Shown in pieces: positions 15,001 to 18,000 of a DNA stretch of 64,000 nucleotides. The stretch lies in the NCBI GenBank assembly GCA_965208325.1, contig OZ242326.1, positions 2,784,001-2,848,000 of the forward strand, given 5' to 3'. The first letter of the stretch is position 1, and every line of letters begins with the position of its first letter. Made by a program: the position numbers. The stretch is from Candidatus Poribacteria bacterium. GTDB taxonomy: Bacteria; Poribacteria; WGA-4E; PCPOR2b.

Positions 15001-18000
15001 TCGGTGACCAGCTAGGTTGGTCGTCGAAAAAGTGAGTAAGCGCCGTCTCGTTTGCACGGTTTGCGTCAATGACTGAAATTCCAAAAAAGTCCTCGCCGGC
15101 AACATTTCCGCGAGCGAAGACAATTTGCCCAGTCATTTTGCGTCGAATAGAAATATTTTGTACGACATTTCTGTCACCGATAGTGATACCCGGCATGTCT
15201 ACTGTGTCATAACCCGGTTTTTCTGCCGTCAAATCGTATTGTCCATCGGAAACTGGGGCAATTATGAATTGTCCCGTAGTGTTCGTAACTGACGCGCGGT
15301 CGCCCAATGTAACCAGGACGTTTCGCACTGGATTGCCGTCGTTAGATATAACCTTGCCCTCAAACTTAACGCCGGGTTCAAGGCGGAAATCGACGGTTGC
15401 CGAATCTTTGCGAGTGACGCTCACTGCCGCTCGTTGTTCCAGATAACCAAGCGCTAAAATGCGCAGGTTATAGTCGCCGCTTTTGAGCGATTCAAACCTA
15501 AAGATGCCATTAGCATCGGTAGTTGTAGTTGCGACCTCCTCAAAGATGGATTTTTCGTCTGTAACGCTCTTTTTCGTAGACAACTTGACTGTCGCATTTG
15601 CAATTCCAGCATGGGTGACCAAATCTGTAACGGAACCTGAGATGACTCCCTCCGGCGATGACACTATCCTCGGACCGACATCTTCGGAATCGTCACCGCC
15701 GCAACCAACGAAAAACACAAACAGAACAAAAATAAACAGACCAAGGTAAGAGTAACGGATTAAGTTCTCCATAATAATTCGTGGGTACGTTTATCCGTCA
15801 GATTCAGACAAACATCCCTCCTCCTCCTTTCCTAATTCACCTGCTGGCAAAAGCCTTCTATACATCAATTCAACCCAGTGAACCAATTCACTAGTCCTTG
15901 TTTAACTGTTTAAACAGAAATCTACAATTTCTGCGCGGCATTTGGTGCATTCTTCCAAAAACCGTCGTCGGCTGAATCATTTAAAACCGTTTCGGGAATG
16001 TAGTTGCTGTAATCCGAAATATTCCCGTGCGTAATCGCATAGACGACAATGTTGATTAGTTGGCGCGCTGCATGCGGCGCAAGTTCCACTAGAATCTGGT
16101 TCTTATTTTTGAACTTGCCGTAGAAGGGCTTCTGAACTGCTCCATCGACTACATGCATCATCTGTTCAGTATCAACCAAAACGGCAAGCCGCCCGTCTAT
16201 AGTGATACCCTGCAGTTCCGAATATGGCCCAAAGTGAAGGGGAATGCTATGGCCCCCCATTGAGGTAATCTTGCGCAAGGGAAAACGTAAGGGGCCATTT
16301 AGCGAATAGTATGTGTTGTAAATCGGGTGATCATTGCGAACAATGCCGAGTTGATGCTCAGGCAGGAGGCTCCGAAGTACTTTCCTTGTACCTCTCATGG
16401 CATTTTCCGCATTTCCATGCGTCGCCATATAGATGAATCCCCCACGATGCAGCACATACTCCCGCAGACTTTGAACTTCAGAGTCTGTATACTTACTTAA
16501 TCCACCCGGACGCCTAGTATTCCAAATTGGATTACTGTGAGAGTTGAATACTCGCTTTAGATGTTCTGGGCTTAAATTGGATCCACCGGGTATCGGCTCC
16601 ATGAATATGATTGGTGCCTGAAAGAACCCGGAATCGTTCATTCCGACCGAATCGACAAACTGTGTTTTTATCTTAGTTTTTTCATTTAGCGATTGCACTA
16701 GATAGGACAGACCTGCCCCAAATCGGAAATTGCCGACACCGTTGCCTCATATGTCTGCACTAGGGTGTAGCGGATCTTCAAAACGCGCCAAGTTTAATCG
16801 CCCCATTATATTTCGACCGCGCCCCACCACGATAGCACCGGGAATACCATGGGGGAGCTCAGGCATGCCGCCTCCCAATGCTACCTTGTCAGCGACATCG
16901 GAAAGCGCGTCGTCAATGTTGGCAGCACCTTCGGCACCAATCAACGAAGTCAATCCGATACGGCCGCTTTCCCTGGTCCCATCCACATTGCTTCCTGAAC
17001 TGACAACCCTATGTCCGCCGCTGAAACCGCCGCCAACGCCTTCCGAGAGCGAACCGCCTCCGCTCACCCCCGACGTTAACGGGGCATTCGAGTGAAGCGG
17101 AAGATCGACAGCAGTAGCAAGAGGTTGGGCCGGTTGGCGATTGGCACGAGAAGACTGAACGAGTCCTTGGACAGATATTTCGGCGCGCGCGGCTTGCGTA
17201 GTAGATTGAGAAACTAGGGAATTCACCGCTGTAGCCTTCGCCGCAAATACGGAGGCAGATCGTCCAGGATGAGTCGTCAGAGCCCGCGACTGCGCCGACG
17301 CTATCTGTCGTTCGATTTGAATGTCAGGCATAGGTATTATCGGCACGGAGATAGGTGCCTTGACATACGGTAATTTCTCTACGGGCTTTATCGGTTTAAC
17401 TTTCAGAATGCTCACATTTAAGGCATCAACTTCTCTAGAATTAATTTGTTTGATGGCGATTAAACTAAACACAATCGCGAGACATAGATGTACCGCTAGA
17501 GACATTAACCAGAAGCGGTACTTGTAACGAGATTTCATTGGGGTAACCTCCTTTTGCGAATAGTTCGGCTAGTCTTGCCGTACCGGGAAGAGAAAACGGC
17601 ACTGCAATCAGCATAAAACCGATTCTCCAATTAGTGTTTACGCTGTGTTTACTTCTATTTATAGCAAGTATGATGCCAGTTCGGAATGCTTTAAAATGAA
17701 GTCGGATAGGGATTGTTGCCCGATAAACTGTTCAATACATGGACGGGATTGTCCGAAAATCGTGCAATGAGAGTTCGGCGGCATAAATGGAAAATGCACC
17801 AACTTGTCACTTCGTCGTGTGAGACGTTGTCCGTGCGAGAAATTGGGTATGTCTATTTCTGAAAAAGGCACGCTTTCCCGTTCGCCATTGTGACACCAAC
17901 TTCAGCCCAAAAAATAAATCGTCATGACTGTATCATTTTTGCCACACTATCCCTTTCAATGCCAAGAAACCTTCACCGTAGCTCGGTCTTGCACCAAACG

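Follow-up and report, generated by a model that had tools for sequence, protein, structure and literature searches.

The two gene calls on either side of an in-frame TGA in the 64,000-nucleotide stretch of DNA analysed here (the window) are very probably one gene, encoding a 538-residue selenoprotein with a C-terminal DUF4159 domain. This confidence applies to the selenoprotein assignment and not to the chemistry of the selenocysteine (Sec). Every feature of a bacterial selenoprotein gene that can be checked in silico supports the assignment, because the in-frame TGA is conserved, the site shows a Sec/Cys pair, a hairpin that fits the model of the Sec insertion sequence (SECIS) is under synonymous selection, and the Sec machinery is complete.

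The gene is located on the reverse strand (15922..17538) and consists of 538 codons and a stop in one frame, with one internal TGA across which relatives match residues 1–538. Read conventionally, this frame falls into two ORFs, 17538..16747 (263 aa, terminated by the TGA) and 16698..15922 (258 aa from a GTG). The TGA forms codon 264 (16749..16747, reverse strand), which is predicted to encode Sec from its conservation in relatives. It is the sole interruption, other stops and frameshifts being absent from the frame, and translation with TGA as U yields 538 residues with U264 in the context HPSADI-U-GNGVGNFRFGAGL. As read from the sequence, the ATG at 17538 is preceded, at a distance of 8 nt, by a Shine-Dalgarno motif AAGGAGG (17547..17553, reverse strand). 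It is the only strong ribosome-binding site, nothing comparable being found ahead of the second ORF. Conservation in the 35 codons that separate the TGA from the next start is among the highest in the whole protein. The survey's finding was that the two calls form one 538-residue protein in the same frame (17538..15922) with a TGA at codon 264, and that the 35 codons past the TGA are coding; both points hold, these codons being strongly conserved as protein. In databases the protein is present only as two pieces, every public copy encountered being split: N-terminal pieces of 264–265 aa end at the TGA, and C-terminal pieces are named 'DUF4159 domain-containing protein'. TGA is also an ordinary stop in the window, where it terminates 15 of the 37 ORFs of at least 250 aa.

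Conservation of the TGA was examined in 94 unique copies (nine matches had been considered in the survey), 85 with TGA, seven with TGT and two with TGC. The 85 TGA rows spanning the site were all fetched, 84 of them full-length and one partial; they come from two families of the phylum, with identities of 44–93%. The TGA is at the identical motif position in all 85, as had been proposed from the smaller sample. Of the 15 stop-free full-length rows, nine were examined and six were not fetched. All nine have Cys at the Sec codon, as claimed before; the claim that this Cys is always TGT did not stand, since two copies use TGC. The database proteins P0005, P0031 and P0050 have Cys at the Sec position too. 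The family is much more widespread in the phylum than the 6 genomes out of 25 of the survey suggested. In the tree, Cys forms are nested twice within Sec clades, and the switch from Sec to Cys therefore happened at least twice. Independently, 185,579 species genomes were scanned with a 23-nt motif taken from the hairpin, and the scan returned at least 80 loci. Among the 80 matches listed, the codon at the expected distance from the motif is TGA in 76, TGT in three and TGC in one.

Two hairpins follow the UGA. The proximal one, GUCGG-CAAUUU-CCGAU (16722..16737, reverse strand), is small and lies 12 nt past the UGA; the CGA in its 3′-arm is the sole codon used in the 85 Sec copies. The apical hairpin, UGGGGCA-GGUC-UGUCCUA (16703..16720, reverse strand), has its GGUC loop at 16713..16710, 33 nt past the UGA. 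It is made up of GGGCA-GGUC-UGUCC (in general form GGGCA-GGUC-UGYCC) plus closing G.U and U-A pairs, with a 4-nt loop beginning with GG and a stem of 6–7 bp. The loop and upper stem are nearly the same as the apical GCA-GGUC-UGC of Escherichia coli fdhF. The positions of both hairpins had been given correctly in the survey; the second had been drawn with a 2-nt loop, and the 4-nt GGUC loop is the better drawing. The survey was also right about the G:U to G:C change in this hairpin and about its differences in Cys copies. For the bSECIS consensus of Zhang and Gladyshev, PMC13188914 (Fig. 2 legend) gives limits of 3–9 for the loop, 4–16 for the stem, G in the first two loop positions, a spacing of 16–37 and a folding energy of at most −7.5 kcal/mol. 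The whole element (UGA plus 55 nt, −13.2 kcal/mol) falls within all these limits, the spacing of 33 nt being close to the upper one; the apical hairpin by itself, which has one G.U pair in this genome, reaches only −6.6 kcal/mol here.

Synonymous codon usage is frozen at the element. Of 144 conserved degenerate codon columns in the 85 Sec copies, only five use a single codon, and all five lie within the element, at +8 and +10 to +13 (CGA, GGG GCA GGT CTG; hypergeometric P 1.2e-8, the copies being kin and not independent). The test was also made in a 27-copy version. Six of the nine Cys copies carry a substitution within the frozen stretch. A synonymous freeze that is relaxed in Cys copies indicates that selection acts on the RNA element itself. 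Compensatory covariation was not found in the hairpins, as none of 11 pairs had changed on both sides and shuffles equalled the observed value; it is the frozen sequence that supports the predicted hairpins. The folding of the whole 78-nt stretch was no better than that of shuffles (z 0.28). No Rfam family matches the region; at E≤10, snR56 and Dictyoglomi-1 came up as chance hits only. A search for the same apical motif after a TGA elsewhere in the genome gave seven pattern hits versus four in the reversed control, and none of the six others is in a credible frame.

The genome contains the full set of tRNA-Sec, selA, selB and selD. The tRNA-Sec gene (77.5 bits, cut-off 47; SeC with anticodon tca according to ARAGORN) adjoins selB (373.5 bits, cut-off 242) and selA (588.7 bits). 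The selD gene (376.8 bits) has an in-frame TGA of its own, in VKCAGUASK, and its product is thus Sec-containing. Since selB scores above the cut-off in 167 of the 176 genomes of the phylum, its presence alongside the TGA form has no discriminating power. The gene was not found in two genomes (G113 and G123), both about 81% complete and each with a TGA copy.

Other readings of the TGA were weighed against these data. If it were a true stop, there would be two genes, for a 263-residue anchored linker protein and a downstream soluble DUF4159 protein. Gene callers and public databases follow this reading, and the GTG at 16698 or an ATG at 16641 could serve as the second start. It is nevertheless very improbable: the frame is retained in 85 of 85 copies, with high protein conservation in the 35 codons past the TGA, stop-free copies have their Cys at exactly codon 264, and the second ORF lacks a comparable ribosome-binding site. 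Two genes would also leave the synonymous freeze just past the TGA unexplained and a periplasmic head without any export signal. Nothing besides the stop codon suggests a pseudogene or an assembly error, an explanation of practically no weight that is refuted by conservation: the TGA is found in 85 copies from two taxonomic families and is unchanged in the contigs of four public runs (three samples, two studies), and further stops or frameshifts are absent. The hairpins could instead promote read-through without selenium, by stimulating near-cognate decoding of UGA (as Trp, Cys or Arg) or acting in a regulated termination switch. The inserted residue cannot be read from the sequence alone, and Sec insertion is usually inefficient, so that a truncated product probably exists too. 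Only a slight probability is given to this mechanism, as Cys is the only alternative residue in 94 copies, which is the signature of a Sec/Cys pair, both loop and spacing agree with a SECIS of the SelB type, the hairpin is relaxed in Cys copies, and the genome has the full Sec machinery together with other Sec genes.

The encoded selenoprotein would start with a single transmembrane helix at residues ~9–30 (17449..17514, reverse strand), the only hydrophobic peak of the sequence (19-residue Kyte-Doolittle mean 2.56), which contains S13-x3-H17 (MSLAVHLCLAIVFS). Five basic residues precede the helix, hence a probable N-in/C-out topology with a cytoplasmic part of ~8 residues. The linker of ~195 residues that follows (16867..17448, reverse strand) is rich in S, A, G and V and aligns poorly among relatives; it is presumably disordered and spans the periplasm. 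The globular head comprises residues 225–538 (15925..16866, reverse strand). The architecture of N-terminal anchor, low-complexity linker and DUF4159 domain had been recognised in the survey, and the hydrophobic peak, the linker composition and the Pfam match agree with it. The predicted architecture resembles the TonB/TolA-type plan (PMC12204202, 2025), in which a long, disordered linker in the periplasm joins a globular head to a transmembrane helix bearing Ser-x3-His; a further likeness is the TolB-like PD40 neighbour in this genus. Unlike TonB/TolA, the protein lacks TonB_C (no match to PF03544), appears to keep the SHLS motif (S-x3-H-x6-L-x3-S) only in part, with F, L or C at +11 and Ser at +12 instead of +15, is encoded away from the motor genes, and carries a Sec-bearing DUF4159 head. 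By a loose pattern, S-x3-H occurs in all 90 copies with the N-terminus present, the first match being a juxtamembrane SRRTH in at least eight; inside the helix proper it was seen in examples only. The gene has no ExbB/ExbD neighbours: the genome's only exbB-exbD-exbD set is at 43599–45986 of the window, 26 kb away, and two canonical TonB_C genes are present elsewhere in the genome.

The head consists of a β-hairpin and a DUF4159 domain of class-I glutamine amidotransferase (GATase)-like fold, as judged from an AlphaFold2 model (pLDDT 80.8, pTM 0.84), the match to 4i66 and Pfam. Pfam places DUF4159 (PF13709) at residues 349–501 of the read-through protein (E 2e-16, 60.6 bits, cut-off 25.9; profile positions 64–201 of 202), and no NCBIfam model matches at E≤0.1, both as reported before. 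DUF4159 is a member of the class-I GATase-like fold clan (PMC4702930). The head superimposes onto 4i66 (Hoch_4089 of Haliangium ochraceum, the solved DUF4159 representative) with Z 18.4 and an r.m.s.d. of 2.9 over 190 aligned residues (Foldseek E 4e-10; profile E 4.9e-10). The next structural match has Z 8.4, and the matches to class-I GATases, with Z 6–8, are at fold level only. A cluster search of a protein atlas with the natural Cys homologue P0005 returned DUF4159 clusters only. The fold is shared with 4i66; the differences are that 4i66 has G-D-R-W-D-I where the subfamily of the window has HP..DI-U followed by a Gly-rich insert, and that an N-terminal β-hairpin is added.

The Sec appears to sit in this subfamily-specific insert, U-G-x-G-x-G-x-x-R-F-G-A-G, of the β1-α1 loop. 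From the alignments and what is known of the fold, this would put it where the active pocket of class-I GATase-like folds lies, on the C-terminal side of the sheet at its edge, near H374 (strand-turn-helix 'elbow') and H462, both subfamily-invariant. Confidence in the head model is lowest in the Sec loop (pLDDT 62–65, below 50 at residues 41–43). All 94 copies have H258, U/C264, H374 and H462, as well as the elbow sequence A-T-H-G. An M-[MI]-H motif accompanies the Sec/Cys, and the head contains no second Cys. Among 17 representatives of distant paralogues, 11 and 12 have Cys in the columns of H374 and H462, respectively; these His appear to replace two Cys of the older paralogues. The Trp noted in the survey in the Sec column of distant paralogues depends on the alignment: that column had been aligned with Trp, and in a larger alignment it is a gap in 16 of the 17 representatives because the Sec sits in the insert.

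Some paralogues of 720–760 aa in other genomes start with Sigma70_r2 and r4_2 domains, after which come one transmembrane helix, a linker and the same kind of head, in Cys or Sec form. This order makes the head extracytoplasmic. The paralogues resemble a recognised class of ECF sigma factors whose C-terminus continues into a membrane segment and an extracytoplasmic part; the protein of the window has no Sigma70 domain and only ~8 cytoplasmic residues. Neither the sigma fusion nor the S-x3-H of the anchor had been noted in the survey. The gene downstream (14129..15772, reverse strand) encodes a lipoprotein with CarboxypepD_reg and PD40 (a TolB-like propeller) according to Pfam, and may encode a partner. 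It follows 16 of the 17 stand-alone copies in two genera (g1 and g7), is co-duplicated with them, and has a single invariant Cys outside the lipobox; no PD40 gene holds this position in the 13 further loci searched, outside these genera. A rhodanese gene is found downstream in 7 of 8 loci of one family (f4), has no signal peptide and is 88–94% conserved; as a functional link it was set aside as plain synteny. There are no metal-homeostasis genes among the neighbours.

UGA264 would thus be decoded by SelB with Sec-tRNA(Sec), a strongly supported step, guided by an in-frame SECIS made of the small proximal hairpin and the apical GGGCA-GGUC-UGYCC. Judging from the architecture, the product would be held in the inner membrane by one N-in/C-out helix with a TonB/TolA-like S-x3-H, and the flexible linker would hold the DUF4159 head in the periplasm. 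For the Sec itself, the preferred role, held tentatively, is that of a redox-active selenol that senses envelope oxidants or thiols or exchanges with them. A signal or contact would then be passed on, in this genus to the PD40 lipoprotein whose gene is duplicated along with it, or in some paralogues to the fused ECF sigma domain.

A metal site is regarded as nearly as likely as the redox selenol: the Sec would bind periplasmic Cu, Zn or Ni, for sensing or handling, along with H258, H374, H462 and the adjacent Met. The three invariant His and M-[MI]-H that accompany the Sec/Cys, the replacement of two paralogue Cys by two His, and the lack of a second Cys to resolve a selenenylsulfide are consistent with it, and several of the recently listed bacterial selenoproteins in the available part of PMC13188914 bind metal. 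However, the protein matches no metal-binding family in Pfam or NCBIfam, and metal-homeostasis genes are missing nearby. A role of the Sec as catalytic nucleophile in a periplasmic hydrolase (amidase or peptidase-like), with a GATase-like pocket and a His base, is unlikely. The fold is that of the class-I GATase clan, the elbow position itself is Cys in most of the older paralogues, and a GATase-domain selenoprotein with Sec at the elbow (GxUxG) is predicted in the available parts of PMC13188914 and PMC12013277. That protein is a cytoplasmic enzyme whose Sec is the residue at the nucleophile elbow, whereas here the elbow residue is His, the Sec is in the inserted β1-α1 loop, the protein is membrane-anchored and extracytoplasmic, and the two have no sequence family in common. 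Furthermore, the Cys nucleophile at the elbow with a His-Glu pair, looked for as the mark of a class-I glutamine amidotransferase, is absent, and DUF4159 has no known activity. A more elaborate form of the redox or metal role is a long shot: the Sec, on the tip of a TonB/TolA-like arm docked to proton-driven ExbB/ExbD, would make a reversible selenenyl-sulfide or metal-bridged link to the Cys of the cognate PD40 lipoprotein of the outer membrane. If true, this would be a redox-gated covalent coupling across the envelope, and in the sigma-fused paralogues such chemistry would retain an ECF sigma factor or set it free.

Compared with known bacterial SECIS genes, the gene has the in-frame UGA, a downstream hairpin with a small loop beginning with G, a spacing within 16–37 nt, Cys homologues and selABCD in common. 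It differs in the second small hairpin that fills the 33-nt spacer, and in a sequence frozen across two taxonomic families with no compensating variation. DUF4159 was not found in any of the selenoprotein catalogues searched, those of 2026 included, in agreement with the survey's view that it is not a known selenoprotein family.

DUF4159 from sponge-associated Poribacteria would therefore be a new selenoprotein family, its internal UGA almost certainly encoding Sec. It is unusual among bacterial selenoproteins in its membrane anchor, a head outside the cytoplasm, its TonB/TolA-like build and its ECF-fused paralogues. Annotation pipelines need a model for the family, because the public copies encountered are all split into two truncated proteins; the frozen 23-nt SECIS provides a clean marker, 78 of the 80 matches listed falling in genomes with Poribacteria in their title. 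DUF4159, so far a domain of no known function, would gain its first functional handle, a conserved, reactive residue set in a defined pocket. If the Sec head is a sensor, this uncultured phylum of sponge symbionts would have an envelope signalling module that depends on selenium.

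The DUF4159 protein is very probably a selenoprotein, about as strong a case as sequence analysis allows. On the minus strand, a 263-codon open reading frame (window 17538..16747) ends at a TGA, and a second one continues in the same frame to position 15922. With the TGA read as selenocysteine (U), a single protein of 538 residues results, in which U264 lies within ...RFEDPLHPSADI-U-GNGVGNFRFGAGLSYLVQSLN... A Shine-Dalgarno-like AAGGAGG is found 8 nt upstream of the ATG at 17538, and residues 349-501 match Pfam DUF4159 (E 2e-16); none of the models of NCBIfam release 20, recent selenoprotein models included, matches the protein. 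The TGA is present in contigs from four public runs (three samples, two studies), those of one run representing a diverged relative with six other differences across 193 bases. The survey's finding that two gene calls form one frame joined by a TGA is thus borne out. TGA is a normal stop codon in the source genome, and terminates 15 of the 37 long open reading frames of the window.

The organism is able to decode Sec. Its tRNA-Sec (77.5 bits; ARAGORN type SeC, anticodon tca) adjoins selB and selA, and selD was found at G000:C1:4481278-4482201 (locus L018 of the source genome). With its own in-frame TGA at the usual site (...VKCAGUASKLDP...), selD is itself a selenoprotein gene; the hairpin 3' of this TGA differs from that of the DUF4159 gene. 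Across the phylum, selB scores above the curated cut-off in 167 of 176 genomes.

The same 176 genomes were searched with the read-through protein, and the close matches listed (47-93% identity) all belong to families f1 and f4. Sequences were retrieved for every listed one-TGA row spanning the site (84 full-length and one partial), and residue 264 was examined in nine of the 15 full-length stop-free rows, two rows duplicating a locus being removed before counting. The TGA occupies the identical position of the motif HP..D[IF]-U-[GN]xG[VIL]Gxx-RFGAGL in 85 of 85 TGA copies, and the nine stop-free copies examined all have Cys there (seven TGT, two TGC). An independent scan for the exact 23-nt hairpin motif, in one genome for each of 185,579 species, returned at least 80 loci; among the matches listed, 78 are titled Poribacteria and two 'uncultured bacterium', and the codon at the expected position of these 80 is TGA in 76, TGT in three and TGC in one. 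A maximum-likelihood tree of the heads requires three Sec/Cys changes. Because Cys forms nest twice inside Sec clades, and P0050, a distant Cys protein (46% identity), is sister to all others, Sec is ancient in this subfamily and has been replaced by Cys at least twice. In another genome, a full-length copy is flanked by a 180-aa fragment (L036, G052:C1:1685358-1685753) that resembles residues 170-301 and has a TGA of its own; the fragment is probably the remnant of a duplicated copy.

Downstream of the TGA, a proximal hairpin (GUCGG-CAAUUU-CCGAU, 16737..16722, minus strand) is followed by an apical one (UGGGGCA-GGUC-UGUCCUA, 16720..16703, minus strand). In the latter, a stem of 6-7 bp closes a 4-nt loop that begins with GG, at a UGA-to-loop distance of 33 nt, and the stretch from the UGA to +55 nt folds at -13.2 kcal/mol; loop, stem, spacing and energy are all inside the limits of the bacterial SECIS model as given in PMC13188914. 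Silent-site selection is the strongest evidence for an RNA element. Across the 85 Sec copies, the amino acid is conserved and its codons are degenerate in 144 codon columns. Only five use a single codon, all in the element (CGA, GGG, GCA, GGT and CTG, at codons +8 and +10 to +13 from the TGA), with a hypergeometric P of 1.2e-8 for copies that are kin and not independent. In a smaller set of 27 copies, five of the seven single-codon columns, out of 167, are in the element. Six of nine Cys copies carry substitutions in the same stretch (GGA, GCG, and TTG four times). Against the element, the hairpins show no two-sided base-pair changes, only G.U to G-C and A-U to G.U variation, the 78-nt stretch folds no better than its shuffles, and an Rfam scan of the region matched no family; by itself, the apical hairpin folds at only -6.6 kcal/mol in the source genome. 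Exactly at the SECIS stretch (window 16698-16742), summed contig depth rises 10- to 50-fold in four metagenome runs, and long metagenome contigs are broken. Many strains and paralogues share these frozen ~40 nt, which act like a repeat and may cause assemblies to fragment at the gene.

The protein has a single hydrophobic segment (residues ~9-30, MSLAVHLCLAIVFS), preceded by five basic residues and including Ser-x3-His. As a loose pattern, S-x3-H is found at the helix in all 90 copies with the N-terminus present, as well as in 15 of the 17 proteins representing distant paralogues. The motif by which TonB and TolA bind their motors is S-x3-H-x6-L-x3-S, according to PMC12204202. As the protein keeps this motif only partly, and has neither a TonB_C head nor an adjacent motor, its TonB-like architecture is a resemblance and not membership. 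The sole exbB-exbD-exbD set of the source genome (window 43599-45986) lies 26 kb away, and two canonical TonB_C genes are found elsewhere. The ExbB of this set has an N-terminal CarboxypepD_reg domain; the set is preceded by a 1095-aa open reading frame without Pfam match (46080-49367) and followed, at the spot where tonB might be expected, by a 171-aa lipoprotein (42836-43351). The whole region (43599-49367, minus strand) is similar to the PVC clusters 'TPR gene, tolQ-like gene, two tolR-like genes' described in PMC12204202.

The helix leads into a linker of ~195 residues that is enriched in S, A, G and V. The head model (residues 225-538; pLDDT 80.8, pTM 0.84) matches 4i66, the one solved DUF4159 protein, with a Z of 18.4. 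Class-I GATase-like folds come next (Z 6-8), in agreement with the clan in which Pfam places DUF4159 (PMC4702930).

Sec belongs to a Gly-rich insert that separates the first strand from the first helix and is the least confident region of the model. H258, U/C264, H374 and H462 are each found in 94 of 94 copies, H462 within M-[MI]-H and H374 within the A-T-H-G that immediately follows a strand (the 'elbow'); judging by this fold in general, U264 and the conserved His presumably face one pocket. Distant paralogues are without the Sec insert, H..DWW.D standing in its place, and where the subfamily has the two His, 11 and 12 of their 17 representatives have Cys, in the forms D-D-C-G and D-Y-x-C. 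Tentatively, Sec may be a redox-active selenol with a sensing or exchange role. A His/Sec metal site is almost as probable a reading, and a role as nucleophile is less probable.

In genera g1 and g7, a CarboxypepD_reg and PD40 (TolB-like propeller) lipoprotein is encoded downstream of 16 of 17 stand-alone copies, and genomes with several copies have one such gene for each. Apart from the Cys of the lipobox, a single Cys of this lipoprotein is invariant; the lipoprotein is absent at the 13 other loci searched. In family f4 (L049-L056), the downstream gene in seven of eight loci encodes a cytoplasmic tandem-rhodanese sulfurtransferase (88-94% identity, active-site loop CRIGERS), a placement that may be mere synteny. 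Rhodaneses handle sulfur and selenium. Paralogues of 720-760 residues start with Sigma70_r2 and r4_2, followed by the same helix, linker and head; these fusions put the head outside the cytoplasm. Most are Cys forms, and at least one (in genome G037) has Sec. Sigma-domain proteins of ~463 residues in databases, whose match is confined to the segment immediately upstream of Sec, seem to be additional Sec forms truncated at the TGA. A related genome has a ~27-kb cluster (L057 and L058; G045:C1:116001-154000) of five family members or partners. It contains two PD40 genes, a Cys form fused to sigma domains, a distant DUF4159 paralogue, two Sec forms each paired with a PD40 lipoprotein, the second pair on the other strand, and an HtrA-like protease. 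In the window, a plus-strand run (8338-14143: ECF sigma factor, FHA-domain protein, Peptidase_MA_2/TPR protein, CvpA and two TPR proteins) is oriented convergently with the Sec gene and its PD40 neighbour.

A literature search did not find DUF4159 together with selenoprotein; within the literature searched, DUF4159 is mentioned only in a Pfam paper (PMC4702930). When searched by terms, the table of prokaryotic selenoproteins in a review of 2026 (PMC13188914) gave no DUF4159, PF13709, ThuA, anti-sigma or periplasmic entry. DUF4159 is also absent from the BSepDB paper with one supplementary file and from the deep-Sep main text; the BSepDB website and the deep-Sep or bioRxiv supplements could still list the family. 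In public databases, the protein is split into N-terminal pieces of 264-265 residues and C-terminal 'DUF4159 domain-containing protein' pieces. Among 1.84 billion proteins, 127 representatives match at E<=0.001 and only a handful are close; the DUF4159 Sec subfamily is small and lineage-bound.
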